64,000 nt of DNA. Source: an uncultured Chromatiales bacterium. GTDB lineage: Bacteria; Bacteroidota; Ignavibacteria; SZUA-365. This document shows, one piece after another, positions 3,281 through 49,820 of this stretch (position 1 is its first letter; the number at the start of each line of letters is the position of its first letter). Under the pieces are notes generated by a model, which saw nothing but the letters and a program-made list of their open reading frames with translations, was not told where the DNA came from and did no database searches. The stretch lies in contig CAZWNO010000009.1 of NCBI GenBank assembly GCA_964635845.1, positions 1,622 through 65,621 on the forward strand. Direction: 5' to 3'. A program made the position numbers and the translations under genes.

Positions 3281-3754
3281 ATGGCAAGGGTAAAGACGAA
3301 CAAGCAGCTTCATCCGAAACACCTTTTCCTCAACATCGTGATAGCCCTGCTGGCTATCGTCGTTTTTTTCCTGCTGTACTCGTTCATCACGAACACGATG
3401 ACCGACAAGCCGGTGGACTGGACGACGGAATCGCCGGAGAGCGCGGAGGTGTCGGCGGAGATTATCCAGATAGACGTGCTCAACGGCTGCGGTGCGTCAG
3501 GTGTCGCCCAGCTCTTCACGGACTATTTGCGAAAGAGGAATTTCGACGTGGTCCAGTCGACGAACTACAAGACCTTCGACGTTGAGGAGTCGCTGGTCAT
3601 CGATCGCACGGGCGACCTCGAGACCGCCAGGAAGGTCGCATATGCGCTCGGCATAGAGGAGAAGAATATCGTGCAACAGATCAATCCCGATTACTACCTG
3701 AACGTTTCCGTGGTCATCGGGAGAGACTACGAAAAACTGAAACCGTCGGAATAA
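3281..3754 (+). CDS. LytR_C (LytR/CpsA/Psr C-terminal) domain membrane-anchored protein
   Basis: ORF 3224..3754. Probable start at the internal Met (MARVKTNKQ...). One TM helix (FLNIVIALLAIVVFFLLYSF) is followed by the LytR_C signature IQIDVLNGCGASGVAQLFTDYLRKRNFDVV...VIDRTGDLETARKVAYALG. Confidence 0.6.
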   Translation: MARVKTNKQLHPKHLFLNIVIALLAIVVFFLLYSFITNTMTDKPVDWTTESPESAEVSAEIIQIDVLNGCGASGVAQLFTDYLRKRNFDVVQSTNYKTFDVEESLVIDRTGDLETARKVAYALGIEEKNIVQQINPDYYLNVSVVIGRDYEKLKPSE

Positions 3755-31381: not shown

Positions 31382-31567
31382 CGGTAAGAAGCATCGTAAT
31401 CAATCAATTTATCGGGAGGGGCGGTGGGAAACAAGGAAGAAGGGGAGTACCGGGAGGAGGAAGAATAACCACGGATTACACGGATTTCACAGATTGATTT
31501 TTTTATGGATTTTGTCGGACGAGTTGCTCATGTTCTCCGTTACGAGAGAGAAGCGTCGAGGTGGCCT

Positions 31568-35123: not shown

Positions 35124-37217
35124 TTACCGGACGACGGTGATTCGGATGGTCGCCGTCGCTCCCGCCGAATGCAGCCGCACGAAGTAAAGGCCAGGAACGA
35201 CAAAGGCACCGGAGGCATCACGCCCATCCCATCGGACGGTATGGCGGCCGGCGGAACGCTCGGTTTCCTCGAGCACGCGCACGACGCGGCCGAGGAGGTC
35301 CGTGACGACGATCTGCACCGGGGCTCCGGATTTCAGTTCATAGGGGATCGTCGTGGAGACGGCGGACGAAGGTGAAAAAGGATTCGGATAATTCTGTCCG
35401 ACACTGATCTGATCGGTGACGACGGGCGGTACTTCGCCCACCGCGGTAGGATCGATCTGATTGGTTTCCAGCACGAGGAACGCCGTGAAGGGTGTCAGGA
35501 TCGAATGCTTGATGCTCAGGTCGATAATGCTCTGCTTGTCTTCCTCGATCCTGTCTTTTTCGTAACGCTTGATCAGCATGTCGATGTGGGCGGCGGCCCA
35601 GTACGAGGCGACCTGCTTGACGTCGACGCGCGTCGCATTGAACGGCACTGAACGCACCAGGTTGACCGGTGCACCTGCCGCGTCACGATAATTGAGGCGG
35701 ACGTCCGTCGGTCCGAAATCCGTCAGACGGCCTGTGGTCACCAGCTTGTCGAGACTGATGACGGAGCTGAAGTCCTGCGGATACACGAAATAGGCATTTC
35801 CGTCGTCGTAATGCACCGAGGGCGACGATATTCCGCCGATATTCAGTTCGAGCATGATGCGCGAAATCACCGTCTGCAGATTATCCCCTGTCTCGACCAT
35901 CGTCACCTTGCCGCCGCGGTCCTCGGCGATGTCATACAGCTGCTCGATGCGGTCACTGTAGATGATCACCGGAAATATTCCAACGCCGAGAGGATCGTTG
36001 TCATGGATGACCTGCAGCAGCCCCTGCGTCGTTGTCACACCGCTGTTCGGCATGCCGTCGGTGAGAAAGAGCATGCGCCGCACGGCGTCGGGACGGAAAT
36101 CCGCACTCAGCGCGGAGCGGAATGCGGTCTCGTAATTCGTCGATCCGCTCGCAATGTACATACGCTCGATGAAGTCGATTCCCTCGGCGATGTTTTCCGC
36201 CGTCGCCTCGATCAGCGCATTCTCGCTTGGATGGCTGACCGCGAAATTGCTGAAGAGCACGATGCGGAAACGGTCGGTTTCGTTCAGTTGCAGGAGAATG
36301 CCGGTGACCGCATCCGCCACCGTTTTACGCCGATCCTCATACATGCTGCCGGAGGCGTCGAGCACGAATACCAGGTCGCGCGGCTGTGTCACGGTTTCAT
36401 TGAGTCGCACCGGATGCCAGCAGATGAAATACGGACGTTCTGATCCGTCTTCCTCGAGATAGGTGAGGGAGGGAAAGATGGAAAAGGCGTCCTGCGGTTT
36501 GTACGCCACCTCGAAATCCTGGGTGTACATCTGCTGCTCGAGGCCGAAATCCACCCGGTAGGCAAAATCCCCCAGGCGCTGCGCTCGGCAGAGCAGCGGA
36601 TTACTGTCGAAATTGGTTGTCAGCTCCTCGATACGCTGGTGAGAAGACACGTTCACGCGCAGCTCCGTGCATTCCACCGGCACGGACTGATACCCCTGCA
36701 GGTTGAGCGGGTAGCGGTAATGCACGTTTCCGTCGGGAGTCATCGGCAATGTGTGGAAGTAGCGGATCTCGATACGGCGGGAACTGCGCGGATTGATGGG
36801 AAACACTTTCAGCTGGAAGCGGTTGTTGCCCAGTGATTCCAGGATGGCTGGATCGCGCCGCTGTCCGACCACGACGCTGTCGTACATGCGCTGCGCATCT
36901 TCCTTTTTCTTGACGATGAAGATGAGGCGGTTGCCGTCCACCCACAGCCAGAGACCGTCGACTTTCGCACCTTCGGGGAGCTGGAAGGCATAGAATCCTT
37001 CGAGTGTGATGTTGTTCTCGTTGTAGAACTCTTCGTCCACATGTGTGACCGCCAGCTGTCCAGTGATGTTCACCGTGGTGCGGATGTTGCTGATGCGCAG
37101 GTTGTACACCGGGGTATCGGTGCCCGGCCGACGCGCGTACAGCACGCCGGCTTCGGCCGCAGCAGTGCCCAGCAGGAAGAGCAGCAGTGGGAGAAGGATC
37201 CGTGTAGCCCGTGTCAT
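35124..37217 (-). CDS. VIT domain plus von Willebrand factor A domain protein with T9SS C-terminal sorting domain
   Basis: 697 aa. Signal peptide. VIT-like N-domain. vWA MIDAS DASGSM. C-terminal QNYPNPFSPSS...RITVVR. Confidence 0.7.
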   Translation of the reverse strand: MTRATRILLPLLLFLLGTAAAEAGVLYARRPGTDTPVYNLRISNIRTTVNITGQLAVTHVDEEFYNENNITLEGFYAFQLPEGAKVDGLWLWVDGNRLIFIVKKKEDAQRMYDSVVVGQRRDPAILESLGNNRFQLKVFPINPRSSRRIEIRYFHTLPMTPDGNVHYRYPLNLQGYQSVPVECTELRVNVSSHQRIEELTTNFDSNPLLCRAQRLGDFAYRVDFGLEQQMYTQDFEVAYKPQDAFSIFPSLTYLEEDGSERPYFICWHPVRLNETVTQPRDLVFVLDASGSMYEDRRKTVADAVTGILLQLNETDRFRIVLFSNFAVSHPSENALIEATAENIAEGIDFIERMYIASGSTNYETAFRSALSADFRPDAVRRMLFLTDGMPNSGVTTTQGLLQVIHDNDPLGVGIFPVIIYSDRIEQLYDIAEDRGGKVTMVETGDNLQTVISRIMLELNIGGISSPSVHYDDGNAYFVYPQDFSSVISLDKLVTTGRLTDFGPTDVRLNYRDAAGAPVNLVRSVPFNATRVDVKQVASYWAAAHIDMLIKRYEKDRIEEDKQSIIDLSIKHSILTPFTAFLVLETNQIDPTAVGEVPPVVTDQISVGQNYPNPFSPSSAVSTTIPYELKSGAPVQIVVTDLLGRVVRVLEETERSAGRHTVRWDGRDASGAFVVPGLYFVRLHSAGATATIRITVVR

Positions 37218-37652
37218 GATAGTACCTCCGGCTCCGTGTGAGTGAAACGACTACTTCAGGACAGACGCACTCTAGACACATGAAATGCGGGATCGTTCCC
37301 ATGCATCGTGAGAAAGTGGCACCCGTGATTGAGGTGACGGCGCATGCGCCGCAACGGTTTCGTATGACAATGTGATGTTCCGCGATGTGGCGGCCTGTAG
37401 GCATGTGTTCCCGTCAACCGAGGCAGGGAATGGATCGCAGAATCTCCCAAACCATGATATTCCTTCCTACAGTAGTTGACATTGATATCTCCTTTCTATA
37501 GTTTTGCGGGAAAAGTTCCCGCCCGGGCCGGAGGAGGACGCGCCTGACCCCGCGGAAGACGATTCGTTCGAAATAGATGACGCAAATGTGTCTCCGGTCC
37601 CCGTGTTCGCGGGGGTCTGATGCTGTTTTCATTCACAACACAGGAGGTTTCG

Positions 37653-39410
37653 ATGAGAAAACGATTTTCCGTCTTCCGACCGCCGGGTCTGACAGTTCCG
37701 TCGGCCGCGATGACGGGCGCTGGAATCGGTGAGCGATGGCTGTGGCTTTTCATGCTGCTCGCCTTTGCGGACGTAGCCCGTGCGCAGGTCGAGAGGGATT
37801 GGCTGCCGACAGCGGCGCAATCCGCCGATCACACGCAGATCCTCGAGTGGCAGACGGTCACGCATATCGCACACCCAGGACTCTCGAAATGGTGTCTCGC
37901 ACTCGGGGACATCGATGCCGACGGCTTCGACGATTTCGCGATGGGTTCGGAGTATGACACGACATTCATCTTCCGGGGAGGCGATCCCTTCGATCACGAG
38001 CCCGCGTTTTTTCTCTCCGGCGGATCGAGCGGACTGGCATGCGCGGATTTCAACGGCGACGGAAGGAAGGATCTCGTCACCGGTGTCGCCATGACAAACC
38101 GGGATCTGGATCCTGAGACACGCGGGCGGATCTTTATGTATTTCGGGAAGGACACAGCCCCATTCCTTGGACCAGATCCGGACCTCGTGATTCGGGGGGA
38201 TACGACGCAGTATTGGGGTTCGGCGAGTTTTCCCGAAGGCGGGGATCATCGCAGCGGTTTCCAAGTGCTAGATTTCAACGGGGACGGCTATGATGATCTA
38301 CTCACGCAGACACGTACCGGTCGACTTCCATTGATGTATTACCCGATCATCTTTTTCGGTGGTCCGGATATCGACACCATCCCCGATGTCGAAATTCTCG
38401 CGGTTGATCGTGGCAGCAGCAACCGTTTCCCGATGGATATTCTGATCGGTGACTTGAATGGTGACGGATGCGACGATATCCTGTTGGAAGGCAGCTATCT
38501 CGAAACAGGCTCTCGTGTCAATTACTGGGATCTGTTTCTCGGCAACCGTTCGGCGATGGCGTCGCTCCCAGACAGGACACTGCGCTCGGACATCGGTTGG
38601 AGCCCTGCGAGATCCGGACTCTCAGCGGTATTTGATGTCAACGGCGATGGGATCGACGACATCGTCGATGCCGCCGTCCACAGGGAATATGGCGATCCCC
38701 TGGTTTTTCTGGGTTCGCGTGAGCTGCCTGAAAACATCGAACCGAACGATTCCATCCCGAATCCCTGGCCGACGCTGGGTGGCATCGTCGGTGCATGGAG
38801 CATCAATCCCGTCGGCGACATGAACGGTGACGGCACGCGCGATCTGCTCATCAGTTGGGCCACCTATTTCATGCGCGACGGAAGTCTGTATTACCTGTAC
38901 CCCATGCGACCGGGCGGACTCGTGCGCGAACATACCGGGCATATCGGCATGATCGAATCGGAGGATCACGTGGTCGATGGAGCATTTGATATCGGCGATG
39001 TCAACGGCGACGGTTACGATGACTTCGCGGTCCGCGGCCGAGGTTTATCGGAGCCGCCAACGATAGGATGGCAGCGTATGCGGCGATTCATAATCTGCCT
39101 TGGCGCTGACAACCTGCGAACCGATGTTCTGCCACTCGCTTTGTCATCGACGTTTGAAATGCAACTGTATCCGAACCCCGTATTCGGCGGCACCGCCACG
39201 GTGAATCTGCGAACGCACGGCGTCACACCAGGACAGGTCACGATAGAGATCATCGACGCGCTTGGCCGTGTCGTATCGCGGCAGGAGGAACTGATCCCAG
39301 CGACAACCGCCGATTTATCCGTATCGGTTTCCGGACTCCGTCCGGGTAACTACCACGTATTCCTGCGTCGGGGAAACGCCGTGACGCAGTCGGTGCTCAC
39401 CATTTTATAA
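37653..39410 (+). CDS. FG-GAP/VCBS-repeat beta-propeller protein with T9SS C-terminal sorting domain
   Basis: ORF from 37620. Start taken at MRKRFSVF, which is preceded by AGGAGG. Repeated DxDxDGxxD FG-GAP-like motifs (GDIDADGFDD, FNGDGRKDL, FNGDGYDDL, NGDGCDD, NGDGIDD, NGDGTRD, NGDGYDD). C-terminal LYPNPVFGG...LTIL CTD. Confidence 0.6.
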   Translation: MRKRFSVFRPPGLTVPSAAMTGAGIGERWLWLFMLLAFADVARAQVERDWLPTAAQSADHTQILEWQTVTHIAHPGLSKWCLALGDIDADGFDDFAMGSEYDTTFIFRGGDPFDHEPAFFLSGGSSGLACADFNGDGRKDLVTGVAMTNRDLDPETRGRIFMYFGKDTAPFLGPDPDLVIRGDTTQYWGSASFPEGGDHRSGFQVLDFNGDGYDDLLTQTRTGRLPLMYYPIIFFGGPDIDTIPDVEILAVDRGSSNRFPMDILIGDLNGDGCDDILLEGSYLETGSRVNYWDLFLGNRSAMASLPDRTLRSDIGWSPARSGLSAVFDVNGDGIDDIVDAAVHREYGDPLVFLGSRELPENIEPNDSIPNPWPTLGGIVGAWSINPVGDMNGDGTRDLLISWATYFMRDGSLYYLYPMRPGGLVREHTGHIGMIESEDHVVDGAFDIGDVNGDGYDDFAVRGRGLSEPPTIGWQRMRRFIICLGADNLRTDVLPLALSSTFEMQLYPNPVFGGTATVNLRTHGVTPGQVTIEIIDALGRVVSRQEELIPATTADLSVSVSGLRPGNYHVFLRRGNAVTQSVLTIL

Positions 39411-39429
39411 ACGTACCTCGGGAGGTTTT

Positions 39430-39609
39430 ATGAAGCACACCATCTTCCTTTTTCTGCTCTGCTGCTGCACGGCTCAGGCCCAGGATCCGGAATTCTGGAT
39501 CGGGTCCTGGGGTGTCACACCCCAATGGGATGCCACCGTACGCAATGTCTGGCCGGTCCGCGGCATGTTGAACCCATTAATCCTACCCCCCCCCCGATCA
39601 AGGCGCTGA
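39430..39609 (+). other. Orphan 59-aa signal-peptide ORF; probably the displaced N-terminus of the downstream 1299-aa gene
   Basis: GGAGG then ATG. MKHTIFLFLLCCCTAQAQ signal peptide. Reading continues through the C10 tract and stops at 39607-39609. The downstream gene's reading frame is open (no stop) from 39581 with no start codon until GTG 39782. Confidence 0.55.
39586..39595. repeat. Homopolymeric C10 tract at the junction of two out-of-frame ORF segments
   Basis: tcctaCCCCCCCCCCgatca. Removing 1 C (or adding 2) fuses the signal-peptide ORF to the 1299-aa ORF. Confidence 0.8.
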
Positions 39610-39781
39610 AGCCCGCACTCTCCTGAACTGTCTCTCCGACAGCATCCTACCGCATGCTAATTGGCTCGGGCTCAATCTCGTCGGCTTCACCGTTCGCGCC
39701 GATGAGGATCCACTGAATCTCTTTCATGGCGACCATGTCATTCCGGATGAGAATTTCTGGAATAACAATGCGGTCGATGAG

Positions 39782-42700
39782 GTGTGCCGCAGCGCGGATC
39801 CTCTCGATCTGCAAGTCCTCGTCCGTGACGCACAATTGAGCAGGCGGTTCATGGGAGAACGGATAATACTGCATCCTGAATCGAGCGATGACTTCACAAC
39901 GGATGGCGGATACGATCCGGATGATCCCACCGAATTCCGACAATTCGTTCACGATCCCAGCCCCTTCACGACGACACTGAGACAGCGCACCGGCGGCTTC
40001 AACTCCATTTACATGTCCGGCAATTCGGGCACGGTCAGTGGTATGACGCTCGAGCGTCTTCAGGAGATGTCGGCGTATCGCGACGGAGATACGGAGGACC
40101 CGAACCGCCTCTCCGGTCTGTACCAGGTTTCCGTGATCATTCTGCCGCGGTACGACACGGGCTATCCCCTGCCTAACGACGATGCAACGCATGTACTCAA
40201 TGTGCGGTTCAGGTATACCTATCCAATCACTGGTGCGACCGTGTACCTCAACTGTCCCTTGGAGGGCCGGCAGTTATGGGAAGGCGATCCCGGTGCGAGG
40301 ACGCGCCGAACGGGTGTGCAGGAGATCGTCATCGGTCAGGTCGAAGTGCAACAGACCGACGGTCGTCAAGGAGGCGACGTGATTTTCGTCGACCAGGGCG
40401 ATCTTGTCAATCACGGAGGGTGGACAAGAACAGGAATGGACGATGTGCGCGGCCCGCGCCGTCTTCGGGAGCACGGGGAGTTTCATCTCCAGGAAATCCG
40501 TGGCGATTTCGACGTTCAGATTTTCTATGGCGACGATGACGTCCATCTCTGGTTGGATGCGGTATGTCTCACGAATCCCGCGACCTTCGGGCTCTGGCAT
40601 CCGGACAATCCGGGCACCCTACCCGTCCATACCGGATATCGTGCCGCGATGGACAACCGCATGGCTTTCCTGTTGCGCAACAATGATCCGAATCTCGCCG
40701 GTGTCGGCGGCATACCTGGATTGCGGTTCGTCATGGGCGAGGAACAGGTATTCAACAACGGGACGTACTGGACCACGTTTCTCCTGAGTCGCCTGATCGC
40801 GGATGAGACGGATGACCATGTGCAGATGTTTTCCACTTACGGCTCATGGACGAACACGGAGCTGACTCCTGTACTCGCAGCCGAGATGATCACCGGACCG
40901 TACAATTATCCTCTCCTCACCGATCATCCGCGTCCGACCCTGCAGGGAATGACTGCACAGAACTACCTCACACCGCTCTATGATGTGAACACCTGGCCGG
41001 ACGGTTTTCGCGGCATGTGGGGTTTGTTCCTCGCCAATATGCATACGAGGTCACTTTTCGCACCTGATCAGCCTTGGATCCCGTTCATCCAGAATCACAC
41101 GAATCTCGCTGTAACCAATCCTCCAGCGGGCTGGTGGGATGGAGTCCCGAACCGTGAGCCTTCGGCTTCCGAGCTGCGCTTCGAATGCAATACCGCGCTG
41201 GCATTTGGGGCAAGCGGTGTGCTGTTCTATGCCTTCTCGAGCATTCCGTACATGCCCGATCAACCGACAATACCACCAACCGTTTTCGCTGCCGACCGCA
41301 TCCTGCCGAATCCCGCGGCAGGTGTCGATTGGTTCGATCCCATTGACATGAATGCTGGAACAATGGGATTCCTGGGGAGCGAAGGCGTGGAGGACGTCCG
41401 GAGAATTCTGGACTGGAATGGCGAAAATAAATGGGATTCGACGCAGGCCTATATCCACGATTTTCTTGAACCGGTCGGATCCTATATATCGCAGCATTTA
41501 CGCTGGCAGACGGGACTGCAGTGGTATTGCCGTGGTGATGCCGATGCCGGATCTTGCGATCTCGTGTCCATGATTGTCAGTCGCAGGCAGGATATCCCGG
41601 ACGGCATCGATCCCCAGGAGCAGACCTTTGTCATGGTCAGCGAATTCGAACGCAACGCCGCATCCCCTCCACCGGAGAGTTCTCCTGCGAGTCGTTTTCT
41701 GTTCGTCGTGAACGGCAACACATTTGACGGTCCCCTCCATGCAGGTGTTGAGGCCGTCGGACAACGGCACATCACTGTCAAGCTGGGCACCGATGGCGGA
41801 CTTGTCGATGAATGGCGCGTGACGAATGTACTGTCCGGCGATATCCATGTCGTGCGGGCGAGCGACGCACCAGACGAAACTTCGTACGCGAACGGTTTCA
41901 CCGAGTACTTCGCGCCCGGGGCTGCGGCACTGTATCGGTTGGATCCCATGGTCGGCGAGACGATCGACTTCAATCCGGTCGTCGATCCTCCGCCACCCTG
42001 TCCGATGCGCTCCATCTACATTGAACCAGCGGCGATGCTGCGCCTGAAATCCACGGATGACGTTTCGTTCGGCTTGGGAAAAGGACTATTCTGTGATGGA
42101 ACACTGATCGCGGATCACAGCACATTCCGATCCTGCGATCTTGAGGTGCAGTGGGATGGGATCATTGCACGTAATGGCGGTTCGGTGTCACTCGAGGGAG
42201 CGACGCTGTACAATGCGGGAGTGGTCGCAGGCTCGGGAGGCTCGGTCACGCTCGACGAGAGTTGCGCGATCCACGGTGCGAACGTCGCGATGTTCAATTG
42301 TGATGCTACCCTTACCAGCACCGCGACGCAATCCACCAGCGTCTACTATCATCTTTCGTCCGTCGGGTACGGGTGTTCGAACCTGCAATACGATATCGCG
42401 ACAGGCAACGGGCTCCACGGATCCACGGCAATTATTACCGCATTTACGACCGACCCGTATCCGGTGCAAATCGATGAATGCACGTTCTCCGGTTTCTGGC
42501 GGGGTGTACACGCGTACGAGAGTGTGGTCCGCGGCGATGTCGATTGGACATTCCCTCCTGATTGTGGAAACAACAGCATCCGATGCAAGGCTATCGGCCT
42601 ACACGCGCTCGAGAACAGCCTGATTGATCTCGGTGATGGCACATACGATTTCATGCCGGAATCCTACAATGAAATCATTTATTCGGATCCGCAGGGATTC

Positions 42701-43681
42701 AGTGCGGTGACGGATGCCACCTCCGGGATTGACGCCGTCTGGAACTGGTGGGAACCCACCCTGCGCTACAGCGGAAATCTGGGGTATGATCCGACCTGCA
42801 TCTTAGATCCCATACCATTGACTAGATCGGGCGGTGAAACGGTTAATTCCCCACAGCAGCTGGTCGCGTATACTCCTCCTCCTCCGCCCGGCATCCGCGG
42901 TCAGGTAAAAGCCGCGCTTCGGCAGCATGATCACGGGGCCGCGCGACACATCATCGGGCAGTTCCTGCAGTCATCTGCCGCCCTTGACGCGGATTTCAAA
43001 ATGTTGCGGTTCATCCACGGAGCGCTGCGGTTCATCGCCGCACCCGCCGCGATCGACAGTCTTCTCACGCTCTGTCTGGCGCGATCGGATCTCGATTCCA
43101 AGCTGCTCGCCGCCGACATCGCGGCAGCGGACAGTCTCTACGTCGATGCGCTCGCGGTGCTCAACGCCTACAGCTTCGCCGGTTCACCGGCATTGCTCAA
43201 GCGCGCGCTGATCCGCAAGTCGCTTCTCTATCCGCGGGCGAAACAAGGCGGATATCGAGACGGCGTGCTTGCGCTCGATTCGCTTCGCGGAATGAACGAC
43301 AGCCTGCTGCTGCGTTTCATCGATCTCTATCCGCTCCTGTACAGCCGACTCTCCCGTCCGCTATCCTCATCGATCCCGAAACGAGCGGCGCAGCCCCTGA
43401 TCGAGAGGGCGCTCCCCGTGGGCATCGAGGTCTGGCCGAACTACCCGAATCCCTTCACCGATGTCACCTCCTTCACATTCAAGCTCGGGGAGGCGACGCA
43501 CGTGCGGCTCGCGATCTACGATGCGATGGGCAGGGAAGTGGCGGTGGTCACGAACGCGGATTACGACCGTGGTGTGCATTCGGCGGTGCTGCGCGCGGGC
43601 GCGCTGCCGAGCGGACTGTATTTCTCCCGCCTCACCACGGATAAAGGAGTAACACAGCGGAAGATGATGTTGATGCGGTGA
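39782..43681 (+). CDS. Very large secreted protein (probable beta-helix/adhesin-like) with T9SS C-terminal sorting domain; N-terminus apparently frameshifted
   Basis: 1299 aa from a GTG start with no signal peptide of its own. Gly/Ser/Thr/Asn-rich repeat region (…ATLYNAGVVAGSGGSVTLDESCAIHGANVAMFNCDATLTSTATQ…) suggests a parallel beta-helix. C-terminal VWPNYPNPFTDVT...KMMLMR CTD. Confidence 0.65.
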   Translation: MCRSADPLDLQVLVRDAQLSRRFMGERIILHPESSDDFTTDGGYDPDDPTEFRQFVHDPSPFTTTLRQRTGGFNSIYMSGNSGTVSGMTLERLQEMSAYRDGDTEDPNRLSGLYQVSVIILPRYDTGYPLPNDDATHVLNVRFRYTYPITGATVYLNCPLEGRQLWEGDPGARTRRTGVQEIVIGQVEVQQTDGRQGGDVIFVDQGDLVNHGGWTRTGMDDVRGPRRLREHGEFHLQEIRGDFDVQIFYGDDDVHLWLDAVCLTNPATFGLWHPDNPGTLPVHTGYRAAMDNRMAFLLRNNDPNLAGVGGIPGLRFVMGEEQVFNNGTYWTTFLLSRLIADETDDHVQMFSTYGSWTNTELTPVLAAEMITGPYNYPLLTDHPRPTLQGMTAQNYLTPLYDVNTWPDGFRGMWGLFLANMHTRSLFAPDQPWIPFIQNHTNLAVTNPPAGWWDGVPNREPSASELRFECNTALAFGASGVLFYAFSSIPYMPDQPTIPPTVFAADRILPNPAAGVDWFDPIDMNAGTMGFLGSEGVEDVRRILDWNGENKWDSTQAYIHDFLEPVGSYISQHLRWQTGLQWYCRGDADAGSCDLVSMIVSRRQDIPDGIDPQEQTFVMVSEFERNAASPPPESSPASRFLFVVNGNTFDGPLHAGVEAVGQRHITVKLGTDGGLVDEWRVTNVLSGDIHVVRASDAPDETSYANGFTEYFAPGAAALYRLDPMVGETIDFNPVVDPPPPCPMRSIYIEPAAMLRLKSTDDVSFGLGKGLFCDGTLIADHSTFRSCDLEVQWDGIIARNGGSVSLEGATLYNAGVVAGSGGSVTLDESCAIHGANVAMFNCDATLTSTATQSTSVYYHLSSVGYGCSNLQYDIATGNGLHGSTAIITAFTTDPYPVQIDECTFSGFWRGVHAYESVVRGDVDWTFPPDCGNNSIRCKAIGLHALENSLIDLGDGTYDFMPESYNEIIYSDPQGFSAVTDATSGIDAVWNWWEPTLRYSGNLGYDPTCILDPIPLTRSGGETVNSPQQLVAYTPPPPPGIRGQVKAALRQHDHGAARHIIGQFLQSSAALDADFKMLRFIHGALRFIAAPAAIDSLLTLCLARSDLDSKLLAADIAAADSLYVDALAVLNAYSFAGSPALLKRALIRKSLLYPRAKQGGYRDGVLALDSLRGMNDSLLLRFIDLYPLLYSRLSRPLSSSIPKRAAQPLIERALPVGIEVWPNYPNPFTDVTSFTFKLGEATHVRLAIYDAMGREVAVVTNADYDRGVHSAVLRAGALPSGLYFSRLTTDKGVTQRKMMLMR

Positions 43682-43870: not shown

Positions 43871-45070
43871 CTACTCGATCACCGTCAGTTTTCCTGTGCG
43901 GAATTCGGCGCCGCTTGAGAGGCGATAGATGTAGAAACCGGGCTCGAGGGTTGAGGGAGAGTACTCCGCGGCATGCGTGCCCGGGGGAAGGTCGGTGTCG
44001 AGCACGGTGGCGACGCGGCGTCCGAGCACGTCGAAGAGTTCGAGTCGGACGCTGCCCTGTGCCGCGAGGGAGAAGCTGAAATGCACTCGGGCGGTTCGGA
44101 GAACAGGATTCGGATAGCTCTGACCGAGTTCGATGCTCACGGGAGACGGCGTGGGTGCCACGCCGGTGACAAAGGGATTGAACAGGCGATCGACCCATAC
44201 GCTGTCGTCGCAGGCCTCGAGACGCACGCGTATGTACAGATTTTCCATGATCACGGCCTTGGTCCGCCGCGTGATACGGTGCTCGTCGTATTCGCGCTGG
44301 ATGAATCCGGCGAAGCGCTGGTACATGGGCACGAGTTCGGCGGTCCCGCCGAGCCGGTAGAAGACACCGCCGCTCTCCTTGCAGAGCCTGCGCAACTGCG
44401 TTTCGTCGATGGACGCGCCCAGAGCGACGATGAATACACGCACGCCGTGCCGGTGCGCATCCTCGATCAGATCATCGATATGCACGCTGCTGCTGTTGTC
44501 GTTGCCGGTGGTGAAGGCCAGCACGGCCTGCACGCGCGCAGTACCCGAAGTGTAGAGTGTCGTGATGCCCGAGCTGATGCCGTCATACAGCGCGCGCCTT
44601 CCACTCACACTCATGGCGTCAACGGCGCCGCGCAGCTCGCCACGGTCATTGCTGAGAAAGGTTCGAATCGTCGGACGGTCATCGAAGGAGACGATCGCTG
44701 CGTAGTCGCAGGTCTTGGACATGGTATCGATGAAGGCGCGCCCCGCCTCGATCACTGTCGGAAGGTCCGCTCCCACGGTGCTCGAATTGTCGAATGCCAG
44801 CACGAGTTCGTAGCAGGAATTTCTTTCCCGCGACGCCAGTCGGTCGATCTGGAAATCGTTGGTGTCGACGCGTCCGATCTGCTCCTCGTAGATCAACTGC
44901 CGCCTGTCCAGCTCATAAATCACGCTGTCGCCGCAGTACGTGGCGAAGTACAGCTGGTAGTAGTAGTAGTCCGGCGTGTTGGACTTCAGCAGCCGAAGTT
45001 CGAGGCGCGGCTGAGCGGATACGCCCGCGGCGGTGATGAGGAGGATCAGGAAGAAGAACATTCGTTTCAT
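43871..45070 (-). CDS. vWA domain protein with T9SS C-terminal sorting domain
   Basis: 399 aa. Signal peptide MKRMFFFLILLITAAGVSAQ. vWA (LAFDNSSTV MIDAS). C-terminal QSYPNPVLRTA...LTVIE. Confidence 0.65.
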   Translation of the reverse strand: MKRMFFFLILLITAAGVSAQPRLELRLLKSNTPDYYYYQLYFATYCGDSVIYELDRRQLIYEEQIGRVDTNDFQIDRLASRERNSCYELVLAFDNSSTVGADLPTVIEAGRAFIDTMSKTCDYAAIVSFDDRPTIRTFLSNDRGELRGAVDAMSVSGRRALYDGISSGITTLYTSGTARVQAVLAFTTGNDNSSSVHIDDLIEDAHRHGVRVFIVALGASIDETQLRRLCKESGGVFYRLGGTAELVPMYQRFAGFIQREYDEHRITRRTKAVIMENLYIRVRLEACDDSVWVDRLFNPFVTGVAPTPSPVSIELGQSYPNPVLRTARVHFSFSLAAQGSVRLELFDVLGRRVATVLDTDLPPGTHAAEYSPSTLEPGFYIYRLSSGAEFRTGKLTVIE

Positions 45071-45091
45071 GGTGTCAGCTCCTTGGTTCCG

Positions 45092-45862
45092 TCACGGGAA
45101 CAGCGGAGACGATACGTACCAGGGGTACGGGATGTTGTAGCGGTTCTGGTCGCCTCGCACGTTGATGATGAAGATGGTGGCGAGGTAATCCGGTGACGAT
45201 TGGAATTGCGGCACGGTCGACTGATCGAGACGGATCATGACGTTCGACCCGGCGGCGGAAAATTTATACTGCGGCGGCACGGTGTTCAGGTCTCCCTGCA
45301 CGAACGCATAGAGACTCTGCTCGCCTGCCCCGACCACGGCCTCGCCCTGGTCGAAGCGCCTGTTCTCATTGTCGTCATGGTACACGACGATCATGGCCAC
45401 GGCGAGCCGCGCGCAGCTGAAATCGCGGAAATATCCGGGCGGGATTTCCGCCTTGAACGGCAGGCCTGTCGCGGGAATATCGAGGAAGTTGGCGGAGACC
45501 GAGTAGATATCCATCCATGGAAGTCTGTTCGAATCGGGGATTCCGCTCGAATCCGGCGGGACGCAGATGAGGCTGACGCGGAGTCCGCTGCCGGAAAAGC
45601 GCTTCAACGGAAAGAGGAAGGTGTCCACGATGGCCTCAAATCGAATGATGGTATCGATGCGCGCCGTATCGCCGCGCCATTCGGCGTCGCACTTCACCGG
45701 AGGAATCACGATGCCACCATCATCGTCGGGGGGAGAACAGGATGCGGCGAGCACGGCGAGCAGGACGAGAGCGGCGCTGAGCAGCGCTCCCGTGGAAAAA
45801 TCGCGGCGGCGGAGAAATCGCCTGCCGCCGCGTGTTCCGTACGCATGTGTCTCTTTTCTCAA
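45092..45862 (-). CDS. Hypothetical lipoprotein
   Basis: Lipobox LLAVLAASC. 256 aa. No recognised domain. Confidence 0.45.
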   Translation of the reverse strand: MRKETHAYGTRGGRRFLRRRDFSTGALLSAALVLLAVLAASCSPPDDDGGIVIPPVKCDAEWRGDTARIDTIIRFEAIVDTFLFPLKRFSGSGLRVSLICVPPDSSGIPDSNRLPWMDIYSVSANFLDIPATGLPFKAEIPPGYFRDFSCARLAVAMIVVYHDDNENRRFDQGEAVVGAGEQSLYAFVQGDLNTVPPQYKFSAAGSNVMIRLDQSTVPQFQSSPDYLATIFIINVRGDQNRYNIPYPWYVSSPLFP

Positions 45863-45870
45863 CGGAACGT

Positions 45871-47145
45871 TCAGAATCGGTAACGGATGCCGTATGATAT
45901 GCCGAGGCTGTGACTGGTGAAGAGATTGTCCTTGTACTGGTATGCGAGAAGCGCGCCGTTGGCGCCGATGAGCATGCTGAAACGCTCGAGCGGGTCGAAG
46001 CGCAGGGCCAGGCGGGCGCCGAAGACGGGACCATAATCGCAGCCGCCGAGCTGCAGTGTGAGTTCGGGCGTGACGCCGGGCAGCAGCGGCTGCGAGAAAC
46101 GGTAGAAGCCGGCGCCGTAGAACAGCGCGGGCTGCCGCTGGAAGAGGAAGAGCGAGTCGTTCTCGACGCGGTAGTACTCCATCGCGAAGGACTTCTCGCC
46201 TGCCGTGATGCCGGCCGTGTGATGGTCGTCGAACACGTATCCGACCGATGCGGCGAACTGCTGCTGCGCGCGATCCACGCCGATGCGGCCGTAGTCAATA
46301 TACGGGTAGGTCGTCAGATGTTCACGCTGAACCTCGACCTCGAAACGTCCGGGCAAGGATACCGGCGCCGGAATCGTACGCTGTTCGATGATCGTGATCG
46401 GCCGTTGATCGGGCACGGTCTGCATGAGCGCGACGAATACCGTGTCGAAGCGCTCGATGACGCGCGGCTCGTCCTTTGCTGCGAGCACCGGCGCGGCTTC
46501 CTTCCGGGGAATGAAGACCGTGTCCACGCGCGTCACGTACACATCGCGATACACGATGCGCGGAGCGGTCTGCGCAACAGCGCGAGGATCGGAGGGAGTC
46601 GCCGGACCGGTCGGATCGGTGGTGGCGGGGACAGCCGTACCCGGTGAATCCGCAGGTGACGGAGGATTCTGTTGTGCCGCGGGATCCACTCGGTCCGGTA
46701 CAGGGGTAATGGCATCGTTCAGGAAGTAGCCGCCCGTAAACAGTGAAAGCCCCAGAAGGATAGCCGTAAGAGTGCGGCCTGCCGTCCAGAATGCGGCTCC
46801 GCCCGCGGCAGCTGCTCCCGCCCCTGTCGTCCCTCCCGCGCCGATTGTTCCAAGCGTCCCGGCGGCACCGAGAGTACCTCCCGCAGCCGCTCCCACGGAG
46901 GCAGCTCCGCCGGCAGCTCCGCCGGCAGCTCCGATCACTCCGGCTGCGCCCAGTATGGCCGCATCCAGTTGCGATGGCACCGAAGAGCTGCGCGCACTGG
47001 AGACGAACGCCGCCCTGACGCCCTGGTACGAATGGAGCAGCGCGCGTTTTTCGGGCGAAACCGAGAGGATGTGGAGAAACTCCGTCTCCTCCTGCGGCGT
47101 GAGCGCGCCGTCCATGAAAGCCGATATCTGTTCTTCGAAGTTCAT
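45871..47145 (-). CDS. RseA-like anti-sigma factor (N-terminal RseA_N-type sigma-binding domain, Gly/Ala low-complexity, one TM, Pro-rich linker, C-terminal beta-rich domain)
   Basis: N-terminus ISAFMDGALTPQEETEFLHILSVSPEKRALLHSYQ resembles RseA_N (LSALMDGE...W..Y.LI). TM helix LTAILLGLSLFTGGYFL. C-terminus ends YGIRYRF (barrel-like). 4-bp ATGA overlap with the sigma gene. Confidence 0.6.
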   Translation of the reverse strand: MNFEEQISAFMDGALTPQEETEFLHILSVSPEKRALLHSYQGVRAAFVSSARSSSVPSQLDAAILGAAGVIGAAGGAAGGAASVGAAAGGTLGAAGTLGTIGAGGTTGAGAAAAGGAAFWTAGRTLTAILLGLSLFTGGYFLNDAITPVPDRVDPAAQQNPPSPADSPGTAVPATTDPTGPATPSDPRAVAQTAPRIVYRDVYVTRVDTVFIPRKEAAPVLAAKDEPRVIERFDTVFVALMQTVPDQRPITIIEQRTIPAPVSLPGRFEVEVQREHLTTYPYIDYGRIGVDRAQQQFAASVGYVFDDHHTAGITAGEKSFAMEYYRVENDSLFLFQRQPALFYGAGFYRFSQPLLPGVTPELTLQLGGCDYGPVFGARLALRFDPLERFSMLIGANGALLAYQYKDNLFTSHSLGISYGIRYRF

Positions 47146-47846
47146 CGTTCTTCAGTCCGATTCTTGTCCGGGGAAAGTAACTGGCGCAGCCTTAGCCGCG
47201 CCCGGAAAATGCGTTTGCGCACCGTCGTCACCGGGACTTCCGTCATCCGTGCGATCTCGTCATAGCTGTAGCCCTGGTACTCGCAGAGCAGGAGGGCCTC
47301 GCGGTTGACCGCGGGCAGTTCCTGCAGCGCGCGTTCGAGGTCGTCATACTCCCCCGGCACCACATTCTCGCCGCCGGGGAGGAATTCTTCGAGTTCGCTC
47401 ACGTCCTTCGGGTACTTCCGGTCGCGGATCACGTTGAGGCAGCGGTTTCGCGCCGACCGCAGCAGGTAATGCTGCACATTCTCGATCTCGCCGCCGCCGC
47501 GCACGCGTTCGAGAAGATTGAGGAAGACCTCCTGGAAGATGTCCTCCGCCGCGGGCTGGTCACCGAGGAAGCGGGTGCAGTAAAGGTACACCCCCTGCTT
47601 GTAGCCGGCGTAGAGTTCCGCAAACGCCGCATTGTCTCCTTGACGGATACGCTGCTGCAGCTGCAGGTCCTGTGAGACGCTCTGACTCACTTCTTCAAGC
47701 ACATCGTTCCTGTAACCGTGACTGACACCGAAGCACCGCGGTCGCCCGAATGACACATCAACAGGGGAAAAATTCCCTCGCGAGAAAAAAAAGGAATCGG
47801 ACTGGGCTGTCCGCAGAAACATAGATGAAAGCGGGGGGAAAAGCAA
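47142..47846 (-). CDS. ECF-type RNA polymerase sigma-70 factor
   Basis: Region 2 (LQQRIRQGDNAAFAELYAGYKQGVYLYCTRFL...DIFQEVFLNLL) and region 4 HTH (EALLLCEYQGYSYDEIARMTEVPVTTVRKRIFRAR). The true start is probably downstream of the ORF-track start, for example GTG giving VLEEV at ~47702, since the track start abuts the next gene with no gap. Confidence 0.8.
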   Translation of the reverse strand: MLFPPLSSMFLRTAQSDSFFFSRGNFSPVDVSFGRPRCFGVSHGYRNDVLEEVSQSVSQDLQLQQRIRQGDNAAFAELYAGYKQGVYLYCTRFLGDQPAAEDIFQEVFLNLLERVRGGGEIENVQHYLLRSARNRCLNVIRDRKYPKDVSELEEFLPGGENVVPGEYDDLERALQELPAVNREALLLCEYQGYSYDEIARMTEVPVTTVRKRIFRARLRLRQLLSPDKNRTEER

Positions 47847-49820
47847 TTATTCTTCGAATTCCCGATCGATGGCATCGATCTCCGCCTGGACGTTTTCCCA
47901 TTCGGCGAAGGCGGAATCGAGCTGGACGGACAGGTCGCGGTACTGCTGTGTGAGAATTTTCGCCTTCTGCTCGTCGCGATAGGTCGCTTCGTCGGCGAGT
48001 GCGTTCTCGACGTCGGTCTTCTTCGACTCCAGATCGGCGACGAGCTTTTCGGCGCGGTCGAGGCGGTTCTTCAGGGGTTTGATGCGTTTGTAGCGATCCT
48101 GCCGGCGCGCGGCTTCCTCGCGCTTGCGGTCGCGGTCGCTGTGCACGGCGGACTTCCGCTCGACGACCTGTCCGGCGGCGTCGCGCCGGCGATGCTCTTC
48201 GAGTTCCTCGGCGCGCTTGCGCTGATAGTCGCTGACGCTGCCGAGCGTCATGCGGAGATGTCCGTCGCGGAAGTCGATGCACTTGTTCACCAGCGGCTCG
48301 AGGAAATCGCGGTCGTGCGAGACGATGACGAAGGACCCCTCGTAGCGCGAGAGGGCGTCCTGCAGAACGGCTTTCGAGCGCATGTCGAGATGGTTGGTGG
48401 GCTCATCGAGGATGAGCAGGTTCGAAGGTGTGAGCAGCATTTTCGCGAGCGCGAGGCGGCTTTTCTCTCCGCCGCTCAGCACGGAGACGAGCTTGTCGAC
48501 ATCGCTTCCGGAGAACATGAAGCAGCCGAGCAGCGTGCGCAGACGTTTGCGCACTTCTCCCGCGGCCACGAGGTCGAGGGTCTGGAGCACGGTGTTCTGC
48601 GGTACCAGTTCCTCCGCCTGGTTCTGTGCGTAGTACCCGATCGCGAGGTTGTGGCCGGGTTTGCGGATGCCCTCCTGAAAGGACTCGATGCCGGCGATGA
48701 TGCGCGCGAGCGTGGATTTCCCCGCACCGTTGACTCCGAGAAATGCAATCCGGTCGCCGCGCTCGATCGTCAGATCGAGGCCGCTGAACAGATGCAGGTT
48801 GCCGTAGGACTTCGCGATTCCCTGCAGTTCCATCAGGTAGCGCCCGGGCTGCGGCGGCTCGGGAAAATCGAAGGAGATGCCGCGCTCTTCGTCCTCGAGT
48901 TCGATCGGCTCGAGCTTCTCGAGCATGCGCAGCCGGCTCTGCACCTGCCGCGCCTTGGTGGACTTGTAGCGGAAGCGGTCGACGAACTGCCGGGTCTGCT
49001 TGATCTGCTGCTGCTGATTGTCGTAGGCCGCGCGCTGCTGCTCCATGCGCAGCACTTTCTGTTCGACAAAAAAGCTGTAGTTGCCGCTGTACTCGGTGAG
49101 CTTGCCGAGCGAGATCTCGATCGTCCGCCTCGTGAGATTGTCGAGAAACCGCCGGTCGTGGGAAATCAGGACAATCGAATTTTCATATCCGAGAAGGTAT
49201 TCCTCGAGCCACTGCAGGGCATCGAGATCAAGGTGGTTGGTGGGCTCATCGAGCAGCAGGATGGTGGGCTCGCGGAGCAGCAGCTTCACGAGGGCGATGC
49301 GCATCTGCCAGCCGCCGCTGAACTCCTCGGTGGCGCGCTGGAAGTCGCGTTCGGCAAAGCCGAGCCCCGTCAGTACCTGTGCGACTTTTGTCTGGATGTT
49401 GTACCCCTCGCGATGCTCGAGCACATGCTGCACCTCGCCGAGTTCCTCCACCTTGCGATGCAGGATTTCGTCGTCGGGATGGACCTCCTGCGAAAGCCGC
49501 GAAATCTCTTCGCTGAGGATGTCGACACGGTCGTGCATGGCGATGATGTCATCGAAGGCGGTGGAGGCCTCGTCGAAGAGCGTTCGTCCGCTGTGCAGGA
49601 TGCCCTCCTGCGGGAGGTAGCCGACGGTGTTGCTGCGCGACTGCGCGATCTCCCCGCTGTCGGGTTCCATCTCCCCCGTGATGATCTTCATCAGCGTGGA
49701 TTTGCCGGTGCCGTTCGAACCGACAATGGAAACACGCTCGTTGTCGCCTATGCGCAGCGAAACGTCCTTGAACAGGACCTTGCCGGGATACTCCTTCGTG
49801 ATGCTGTTGAGAGAGATCAT
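47847..49820 (-). CDS. ABC-F family ATPase (Uup/YbiT-like; two ABC domains, no TMD, C-terminal coiled coil)
   Basis: 657 aa. Two Walker A motifs (GSNGTGKST, GVNGAGKST). Two signature LSGG motifs. Charged coiled-coil C-terminus. Confidence 0.85.
   Translation of the reverse strand: MISLNSITKEYPGKVLFKDVSLRIGDNERVSIVGSNGTGKSTLMKIITGEMEPDSGEIAQSRSNTVGYLPQEGILHSGRTLFDEASTAFDDIIAMHDRVDILSEEISRLSQEVHPDDEILHRKVEELGEVQHVLEHREGYNIQTKVAQVLTGLGFAERDFQRATEEFSGGWQMRIALVKLLLREPTILLLDEPTNHLDLDALQWLEEYLLGYENSIVLISHDRRFLDNLTRRTIEISLGKLTEYSGNYSFFVEQKVLRMEQQRAAYDNQQQQIKQTRQFVDRFRYKSTKARQVQSRLRMLEKLEPIELEDEERGISFDFPEPPQPGRYLMELQGIAKSYGNLHLFSGLDLTIERGDRIAFLGVNGAGKSTLARIIAGIESFQEGIRKPGHNLAIGYYAQNQAEELVPQNTVLQTLDLVAAGEVRKRLRTLLGCFMFSGSDVDKLVSVLSGGEKSRLALAKMLLTPSNLLILDEPTNHLDMRSKAVLQDALSRYEGSFVIVSHDRDFLEPLVNKCIDFRDGHLRMTLGSVSDYQRKRAEELEEHRRRDAAGQVVERKSAVHSDRDRKREEAARRQDRYKRIKPLKNRLDRAEKLVADLESKKTDVENALADEATYRDEQKAKILTQQYRDLSVQLDSAFAEWENVQAEIDAIDREFEE

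Follow-up and report, generated by a model that had tools for sequence, protein, structure and literature searches.

How does a regulator encoded in the same operon as envelope and secreted proteins receive its signal, and which genes does it control? This question is raised by a 64 kb stretch of DNA (the window, to whose positions all coordinates refer) from an uncultured Chromatiales bacterium (GTDB lineage Bacteria; Bacteroidota; Ignavibacteria; SZUA-365; GenBank assembly GCA_964635845.1, contig CAZWNO010000009.1, positions 1,622 to 65,621 of the forward strand). An earlier note on this DNA described four minus-strand genes, encoding an extracytoplasmic function (ECF) sigma factor, an anti-sigma factor with an RseA_N-type N-terminus, a lipoprotein and a secreted von Willebrand factor type A (vWA) protein with a type IX secretion system (T9SS) sorting domain, and proposed that they form an envelope-signal operon. 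Our analysis indicates that these genes probably constitute a self-regulating ECF sigma/anti-sigma module whose anti-sigma factor is of the Dma type, a family of ECF-linked anti-sigma factors spanning both membranes that was described in 2024 (Pardue et al. 2024, PMC10927553). The architecture of the module, its synteny and the sharing of its promoter are supported by sequence, structure prediction and gene order in related loci; membrane localization and proteolytic release of the sigma factor we infer from the Dma1/Das1 pair of Bacteroides.

The anti-sigma factor is predicted to span both membranes

We analyzed the domain structure of the anti-sigma factor with an AlphaFold2 (AF2) model built from an alignment of 25 family sequences. 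In this model a cytoplasmic helical domain, a single inner-membrane helix, a disordered Pro-rich linker and a C-terminal beta-barrel follow one another (Table 1). The N-terminus was predicted with high local confidence (predicted local distance difference test (pLDDT) 85-93 across residues 1-40), and the N-terminal ~70 residues are the best-conserved part of the family alignment, after which come a segment rich in Gly/Ala, a hydrophobic one, a Pro-rich region that varies and ~160 conserved C-terminal residues. The window protein itself matched RseA_N weakly (E = 0.0047, 17.9 bits, below the cut-off of 24), while among the 25 family members RseA_N was found in 19 and zf-HC2 in 20. No match to RseA_C was detected in the anti-sigma factor in a Pfam scan. 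The hydrophobic stretch TLTAILLGLSLFTGGYFL of the membrane helix is conserved across the family, and the 120-residue linker, of which 17% is Pro, differs in both length and sequence between homologues; its length was judged ample for crossing the periplasm. Two short motifs stand out in this otherwise variable tether: VTRVDTV (46519-46533 (-), residues 205-209) and R-x-DTV-x-[IV]AL (46441-46455 (-), residues 231-235). In the family alignment D208 and T209 never vary and D234 and T235 hardly ever do, and these conserved DTV motifs are candidates for a cleavage or partner-binding site.

The C-terminal domain was modelled as eight long antiparallel strands at residues 267-423, with mean pLDDT over 10-residue blocks of up to 94 and two loops of low confidence. 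When this domain was compared with the PDB using Foldseek, all 20 matches at E <= 0.001 were outer-membrane or designed transmembrane barrels and none was a soluble fold. These matches included full-length OmpA, the OmpA transmembrane domain, OprF-N, NspA, Ail and designed transmembrane barrels; the best of them (OmpA, OprF-N, NspA and Ail) had E-values of 3e-6 to 1e-4, and the target TM-scores for small barrels were 0.6-0.8. Furthermore, the last eight residues of the protein, S-Y-G-I-R-Y-R-F, fit the beta-signal recognized by the beta-barrel assembly machinery (BAM), polar-x-G-x-x-aromatic-x-aromatic, and G419, Y422 and F424 were invariant in all 25 family sequences. Hydrophobic and polar residues alternate in most of the barrel strands. 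Pfam and NCBIfam scans gave no match for the barrel domain, no Pfam family of outer-membrane proteins was found at E <= 1 in any of the 25 family members, and a profile search of PDB sequences with the anti-sigma alignment returned only noise (E >= 0.12). A match to DUF4719 was disregarded, as it sits in low-complexity sequence. Altogether, the anti-sigma factor is predicted to bridge the inner and outer membranes. The RseA_N-type assignment of the earlier note holds, weakly, for the N-terminal ~50 residues, but the protein lacks RseA_C and its C-terminal 158 residues are instead a predicted eight-stranded barrel.

The anti-sigma gene was found split over two contig ends, inside the Gly/Ala-rich low-complexity region, in L009 and L020, which stem from the same metagenome-assembled genome (MFD10475 bin42). 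Assemblies seem to break in this region, at which several database homologues also end short.

The four genes form a conserved unit

The coordinates of the four open reading frames (47142-47846, 45871-47145, 45092-45862 and 43871-45070) agreed with those reported before, and we obtained the same values of -4, 8 and 21 nt for the gaps between them. We then compared the window with 17 independent related loci, onto each of which the window proteins were mapped. The order anti-sigma, lipoprotein, vWA protein with C-terminal sorting domain (CTD) was kept in 16/16 testable loci, and the sigma gene lay directly before the anti-sigma gene in 15/15. The lipoprotein gene was always located between the anti-sigma and vWA genes, with the vWA orthologue next in all testable loci. 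Conservation extended down to low similarity, as the anti-sigma factors of these loci were 39-77% identical, and it was accompanied by changing flanks: an ABC-F, GH20-like or CarboxypepD_reg gene on the 5' side and a BipA, VIT-vWA or other gene on the 3' side. With the order kept in all 16 loci and the sigma gene adjacent in all 15, the four-gene linkage is thus far beyond chance. The conservation of the neighbourhood, which the earlier note had put forward as a check, bears out its operon reading, that of an ECF sigma, anti-sigma, lipoprotein and vWA-T9SS module whose genes point the same way, lie close together and have been conserved in evolution, and the note's assignments of the sigma, lipoprotein and vWA-T9SS genes were likewise upheld by the domain data given below.

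Full-length homologues of the anti-sigma factor formed 32 clusters among 5.8 billion proteins, and homologues of the lipoprotein formed 34 clusters, confined to the same clade. The genomes from which these homologues come carry the depositor labels Bacteroidetes/Bacteroidota or Ignavibacteria.

A shared promoter motif predicts a regulon of two transcription units

Promoters of ECF sigma factors consist of a GGAAC-like -35 box and a GTC-containing -10 box with characteristic spacing. The form of such a promoter is seen in GGAAY-N15-GTGTC, a conserved motif that precedes the sigma gene both in the window and in relatives. This 25-nt motif was present in its exact pattern before the sigma gene in 14/15 related loci, and the remaining locus (L008) carries a GGAAG variant. 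The window holds a second copy, P_VIT, in front of a gene for a larger secreted vWA protein with an additional VIT domain. We scored the window with a position matrix derived from 24 sites of the other loci, the window being left out as a hold-out test: P_sigma reached 35.9 bits and P_VIT 32.6 bits, with all other sites of the 64 kb below 14 bits. Over the 362 kb made up of the window and the loci, matches of at least 19 bits occurred only before sigma genes, VIT-vWA genes and two T9SS-cargo paralogues of L011. No copy of the motif was found within the short intergenic gaps of the operon. Two matches to a loose form of the pattern, at 3427 (+) and 60471 (-), were rejected as chance, having the wrong spacing and less than 14 bits on the matrix.

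Orthologues of the VIT-vWA protein (53-83% identity) are encoded directly after the four-gene operon in L003, L005, L007, L009, L010, L013, L014, L017, L018 and L019, and in 10/10 of these loci the gene is preceded by its own copy of the motif in a short intergenic gap. The VIT-vWA gene is hence predicted to be a second transcription unit of the regulon. Since the motif is common to the operon and the VIT-vWA gene and absent from the rest of the window, the sigma factor most likely drives both its own operon and the VIT-vWA gene. The module therefore takes in more than the four genes noted earlier, namely the promoter at 47752-47776 and, at 35124-37299, the VIT-vWA gene together with its promoter. 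The earlier note had left it open whether the vWA protein is the output or the sensor of the system; of these, output is plausible, as a second vWA/T9SS gene carries the same motif as the sigma gene.

In the window, the vWA-CTD and VIT-vWA genes are separated by two plus-strand T9SS cargo genes (37620-43681 (+)). This 6.6-kb block looks like an insertion between the two units, because the vWA-CTD and VIT-vWA genes adjoin in the close relatives L007, L009 and L010. P_sigma is also marked by a conserved inverted repeat, GTGTCA-N7-9-(G/T)GACA, right after the -10 box (47731-47756 (-)). An equivalent repeat was seen in L002, L006, L007, L010-L012, L015 and L020, and the VIT-vWA promoter is without it; the repeat could be an operator or a hairpin in the 5' untranslated region. 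In L011 (934-6144 (-)), two paralogous genes for BNR/sortilin-like T9SS cargo proteins of ~715 aa each follow a near-identical copy of the L011 sigma promoter, which suggests that in this lineage the regulon has expanded to other T9SS cargo.

Barrel-bearing anti-sigma proteins form a wider family

A hidden Markov model (HMM) built for the barrel domain was run on 1.84 billion cluster representatives (clusters at 50% identity). At E <= 0.001 it matched 1061 proteins, of which 313 also passed E <= 1e-10. Among the best 142 of the 1061 matches, the barrel was located at the extreme C-terminus in 141 and the last residue was aromatic in 120; a hydrophobic helix preceded the barrel in 112 of the 125 full-length proteins in this set. 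Ten remote relatives were sampled, and none had a Pfam match, including to outer-membrane families at E <= 0.01. The N-termini of the remote group were homologous to those of the window family (hhalign probability 98.7%, E = 2e-16). Furthermore, an ECF sigma gene lay directly upstream in 3/3 sampled genomic contexts, its product being 34-44% identical to the window sigma factor. In two of these three contexts the next gene downstream was lipoprotein-like, followed in one by a BNR/T9SS cargo gene. When the window lipoprotein family was compared by hhalign with the lipoprotein-like genes of the two remote relatives, no homology beyond the lipobox was detected.

The named remote members come from Bacteroidota- and Ignavibacteria-labelled genomes, with one Patescibacteria label that is probably a binning error. 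One genome, GCA_016928515.1, holds both a member of the window family (L013) and a remote paralogue of the same architecture (L022). The gene of this 501-aa paralogue adjoins an ECF sigma gene of its own and is followed by a gene whose 414-aa product has no known function and by two genes for glycosyltransferases. A word-indexed protein search with a diverse barrel alignment, aimed at named Bacteroides Dma1-like proteins, gave 4 matches and was uninformative.

A model for signaling and its alternatives

For Dma proteins, a model has been proposed in which the barrel acts as the sensor for the outer membrane or the exterior and the sigma factor is freed through proteolysis (PMC10927553). By analogy, at rest the cytoplasmic domain of the anti-sigma factor would keep the sigma factor at the inner membrane, while the barrel would lie in the outer membrane. 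Proteolysis of the tether and the membrane segment would be triggered by a ligand or a disturbance acting there or at the cell surface, and would free the sigma factor, which would direct RNA polymerase to P_sigma and P_VIT. The unit behind P_sigma would then be transcribed to yield the sigma factor, the anti-sigma factor, the lipoprotein and the vWA cargo, and that behind P_VIT the VIT-vWA cargo. The cell would come to display the lipoprotein and two T9SS-exported vWA proteins, and newly made anti-sigma factor would reset the switch.

Several observations weigh against this reading. The barrel matches no Pfam or NCBIfam family of outer-membrane proteins, whereas that of Dma1 is annotated as OMP_b-brl_2, and the identification of the barrel draws on the beta-signal, Foldseek and an AF2 model for which only 25 sequences served as input. 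The hydrophobic Gly/Ala-rich residues 55-113, between the anti-sigma domain and the membrane helix, would change the topology if embedded in the membrane; in our reading, helix 4 of the anti-sigma domain takes up residues 58-73. Moreover, the VIT-vWA gene lies 6.6 kb from the operon in the window and is non-adjacent in 4 relatives, so that it is the motif that places this gene in the regulon.

Could the C-terminal beta-rich domain instead be a soluble periplasmic sensor of signals from the lipoprotein or the vWA protein, in a conventional RseA-like anti-sigma factor that crosses a single membrane and has no part in the outer membrane? The matches of RseA_N and zf-HC2 to the N-terminus and the failure of Pfam to find an outer-membrane barrel family in any of the 25 members would suit such a protein, as canonical anti-sigma factors carry periplasmic sensor domains (PMC10927553). 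We nonetheless consider it quite unlikely: the eight strands are confidently predicted, every Foldseek match within the threshold is a membrane barrel, the chain ends in a BAM beta-signal with invariant G, Y and terminal F, and most of its strands alternate between hydrophobic and polar residues. The absence of RseA_C and a long disordered Pro-rich linker, as needed to reach the outer membrane and as found in Dma1, also argue against a soluble sensor. It is very improbable, too, that the four genes are neighbours through narrow-clade ancestry alone, without forming a functional unit, and that the motif is not the promoter of this sigma factor. All homologues do come from one group of uncultured Bacteroidota/Ignavibacteria-labelled genomes, and a scan with a sigma-70-type consensus revealed a few weak promoter-like sites inside the operon. 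However, gene order persists down to 39% anti-sigma identity while both flanks change, the genes overlap or are separated by very short gaps, the motif accompanies the VIT-vWA gene both where that gene adjoins the operon and where it is 6.6 kb off, and the motif has the classic ECF boxes and spacing and is absent from the rest of the 362 kb.

The part played by the lipoprotein and the cargo is a separate matter. Either or both might belong to the sensor, instead of or besides the output, as co-receptors or ligands; for example, the cargo CTD or the lipoprotein might bind the DTV motifs of the tether or the barrel, the module then reporting T9SS traffic or surface occupancy as feedback. Strict co-occurrence of the lipoprotein with the anti-sigma factor within one clade (34 and 32 clusters), the conserved motifs in an otherwise disordered linker and the presence of a non-homologous lipoprotein gene beside the anti-sigma gene in remote relatives are all in line with such a role. 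There is also a precedent, in that the CTD of the T9SS cargo protein PorA binds the sensor PorY and activates the PorXY-SigP cascade (PMC12152298). On the other hand, a shared autoregulated operon already accounts for the co-occurrence. We hold a sensory role of these proteins to be rather unlikely; it would, moreover, be compatible with the self-regulating Dma-type module, not exclusive of it.

Sigma factor, lipoprotein and vWA proteins

The sigma factor scored above the Pfam cut-offs for Sigma70_r2 (40.8 bits) and Sigma70_r4_2 (66.8 bits) and well above the cut-off of 42.9 for TIGR02937 (85.2). With sigma-2 and sigma-4 regions only, it belongs to the ECF group (group 4) of sigma-70 factors. 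Its best NCBIfam family matches, Sig70_bacteroi1 (101.9 vs a cut-off of 126.4) and GFO_1088/PG0214 (83.8 vs 130), were both below threshold. The start of the listed open reading frame is a TTG placed directly against the stop of the upstream ABC-F gene. Because sigma homologues are 180-191 aa long, tblastn alignments of the gene start at the in-frame GTG at 47702 and AGGAA lies just 5' of this GTG, the sigma gene most likely extends over 47142-47702 and encodes 186 aa. The shortened gene leaves a promoter region of 144 nt before the GTG, and its stop and the anti-sigma start share 4 nt.

The TTG at 45862 is the sole usable in-frame start of the lipoprotein gene before the signal peptide, and the 8-nt gap therefore holds. 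The lipobox Cys42 is invariant in 22 homologues. At residues 42-47 (45722-45739 (-)), this Cys is followed by a conserved S-P-P-D-D, whose acidic residues we take to resemble the lipoprotein surface-export signal of Bacteroidota. The AF2 model of the lipoprotein is beta-rich (pLDDT 75.9, predicted TM-score (pTM) 0.70). No Pfam or NCBIfam match was found at E <= 0.1, Foldseek returned nothing for the model at E <= 0.001, and a profile search of PDB sequences with the lipoprotein alignment gave only noise (E >= 0.12). The top Foldseek matches (C2-like, MD-1 and antibody folds) had probabilities below 0.25 and were disregarded, and a twin-arginine signal in the long N-region was dropped, as it is not kept in orthologues.

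Both the 399-aa vWA protein and the VIT-vWA protein are T9SS type A cargo, each with a hydrophobic N-terminal signal sequence; TIGR04183 scores for the two exceed the cut-off of 23 (Table 1). In the 399-aa protein the metal ion-dependent adhesion site (MIDAS) keeps D-N-S-S-x and the downstream Asp, without a conserved third MIDAS serine or the usual Thr, and its metal site may, from these residues, be degenerate. The MIDAS of the VIT-vWA protein (DxSxS) is intact, reading DASGS. Genes for the T9SS secretion machinery were not found within the 64-kb window.

Table 1. Positions and supporting data of the features of the module and its cargo genes.
Feature	Position	Strand	Remarks
P_sigma, ECF-type promoter motif	47752..47776	-	GGAATTTTTCCCCTGTTGATGTGTC; -35 GGAAT, -10 GTGTC
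ECF sigma factor, 186 aa (most likely)	47142..47702	-	from GTG at 47702; mechanical open reading frame reaches TTG at 47846
Anti-sigma residues 1-73, predicted cytoplasmic four-helix anti-sigma domain	46927..47145	-	AF2 helices 3-11, 17-29, 31-54, 58-73
Anti-sigma residues 114-146, single predicted inner-membrane helix	46708..46806	-	AF2; W120 and R124 on cytoplasmic side
Anti-sigma residues 147-266, predicted disordered Pro-rich periplasmic linker	46348..46707	-	pLDDT mostly <50; two conserved DTV motifs
Anti-sigma residues 267-424, predicted 8-stranded outer-membrane-type beta-barrel	45874..46347	-	AF2, Foldseek, beta-signal; stop codon 45871-45873
Lipoprotein of unknown fold, 256 aa	45092..45862	-	lipobox LAAS-C (Cys42), then SPPDD
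Secreted vWA protein, 399 aa, Sec signal peptide and T9SS type A C-terminal sorting domain	43871..45070	-	VWA 43.1 bits, TIGR04183 28.7
P_VIT, second motif copy	37275..37299	-	GGAACGATCCCGCATTTCATGTGTC; 57 nt 5' of VIT-vWA start codon
VIT-vWA protein, 697 aa	35124..37217	-	VIT 70.5, VWA 52.2, FlgD_ig 39.9 bits; TIGR04183 33.6 vs 23
T9SS cargo gene, FG-GAP repeats and CTD	37620-39410	+	domain scan
1299-aa protein, CTD its sole recognisable domain	39782-43681	+	domain scan

Genes in the neighbourhood of the module

The gene directly 5' of the sigma gene encodes an ABC-F ATPase (47847-49820 (-)) and is syntenic in 8 relatives (L005-L008, L014, L016, L017 and L020). A terminator-like hairpin (47798-47813 (-)) follows it and stands between the ABC-F gene and the sigma promoter. 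On the other side of the module, the window encodes a 722-aa protein with BatA_N and vWA domains (29213-31381 (-)) and a 938-aa GH20b/CBM_4_9 protein (31505-34321 (+)); GH20b-type genes also flank the module in L002, L005 and L011. Counting five CTD proteins within ~15 kb as well as the BatA_N-vWA and GH20b/CBM_4_9 proteins, the region encodes many surface and secreted proteins. In Bacillus, site-1 cleavage of an anti-sigma factor is carried out by PrsW, and a gene for a PrsW-family protease just after the VIT-vWA gene in L003 (13488-14504 (-)) and L004 was considered as a candidate for this function; it was rejected, being absent from the window and from all other loci.

Implications

The regulons of Dma-type regulators are partly understood so far. 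The locus adds to them a sequence-divergent clade that current domain libraries miss, a clean promoter motif with a predicted two-unit regulon, and a first link between a Dma-type regulator and T9SS cargo, in the form of two vWA proteins. The ~1000 further cluster representatives found with the barrel profile point to a much larger unannotated family, which suggests that genome annotation misses a widespread class of envelope sensors. With one sigma factor, two promoters and three surface proteins, the module is also a compact system for asking what the sensor detects. As a tentative proposal, which we put forward as possible and do not favour outright, the system may couple the state of the outer membrane or T9SS traffic to the production of surface vWA adhesin-like proteins, with the lipoprotein or cargo as co-sensor in a feedback loop, in a branch that has spread through environmental Bacteroidota-like bacteria. 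If this were true, dual-membrane signaling would be a general and ancient mode of surface control in the group, and not a Bacteroides speciality tied to vesiculation.

Comparison with known systems

Das1 is bound by the first 40 residues of Dma1; total membranes contain Dma1 at full length, and outer-membrane vesicles accumulate C-terminal fragments of it (PMC10927553). The Dma1 regulon includes the lipoprotein NigD2 (BT_4719), by locus number a neighbour of das1/dma1 (BT_4720/BT_4721) (PMC10927553). The anti-sigma factor of the window shares with Dma1 an N-terminal sigma-binding region (putative here), one inner-membrane helix, a long disordered tether and, at the C-terminus, a barrel of eight strands, all of them here predicted, and the two systems also have in common an operon with an ECF sigma gene, a lipoprotein gene adjoining the pair and a host from the Bacteroidota in the broad sense. 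They differ in that the barrel of Dma1 is annotated as OMP_b-brl_2, whereas that of the window is without a Pfam family, and in that the lipoprotein encoded here is not NigD-like, having no NigD Pfam match. Furthermore, the phenotype in B. thetaiotaomicron is vesiculation through NigD1, whereas the regulon predicted here consists of T9SS-secreted vWA proteins; and the hosts are uncultured environmental lineages, some of them Ignavibacteria-labelled, whereas the Dma family was reported as restricted to Bacteroidota (PMC10927553). The genes of Dma proteins adjoin, or share an operon with, a sigma gene of group ECF21; a sigma gene is adjacent in 15/15 of our loci, with the window sigma factor scoring below the NCBIfam family cut-offs. 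The membrane helix, disordered region and eight-stranded barrel that define the Dma architecture are all present in the predicted structure, but OMP_b-brl_2 is not detected. We conclude that the anti-sigma factor most likely works like a Dma, as a divergent member of the family; the likeness is one of architecture, and orthology is not claimed. The earlier note was not aware of the combination of genes as a described system. As to the type of regulator, this no longer applies, since it was described in 2024 (PMC10927553), but no description was found of the coupling to T9SS vWA cargo or of the clade with a Pfam-invisible barrel, and our literature searches returned no paper in which vWA proteins or type IX secretion are linked to regulators of the Dma type.

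Reo/EcfO of Bacteroides fragilis and M0N98_03760 of Phocaeicola vulgatus, cited as Dma1 orthologues, likewise combine an ECF sigma factor sequestered by the anti-sigma N-terminus with a predicted C-terminal barrel (PMC10927553). Tolerance of oxidative stress and resistance to the BcpT toxin have been connected with them, and no vWA/T9SS output has been reported (PMC10927553). The module also resembles RseA/sigma-E in its weakly RseA_N-type N-terminus, single membrane helix and autoregulated ECF operon, and in that regulated proteolysis probably frees the sigma factor. Unlike RseA, however, the anti-sigma factor has no RseA_C and no RseB partner, and its periplasmic part is a disordered tether leading to a barrel. 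The RseA system monitors the outer membrane by an indirect route, in which unfolded porin C-termini are bound by DegS, whereas here the anti-sigma factor would be an outer-membrane protein itself. As in FecA/FecR/FecI, a barrel in the outer membrane would signal to an ECF sigma factor by way of an anti-sigma factor in the inner membrane. In the Fec system the receptor and the anti-sigma factor are separate, TonB-dependent proteins, whereas here a single polypeptide would take both roles, without a FecR domain or a TonB-dependent transducer in the module: the anti-sigma factor had no FecR match, and no Pfam domain of TonB-dependent receptors was present in the called genes of eight annotated related loci. 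Finally, PorXY-SigP-PorA of Porphyromonas gingivalis likewise ties an ECF sigma factor to type IX secretion and includes a T9SS cargo protein in its regulatory loop (PMC12152298, PMC7712824). SigP is under two-component control and regulates genes of the secretion machinery, whereas the sigma factor described here is placed under an anti-sigma factor and its predicted targets are the genes of the cargo.

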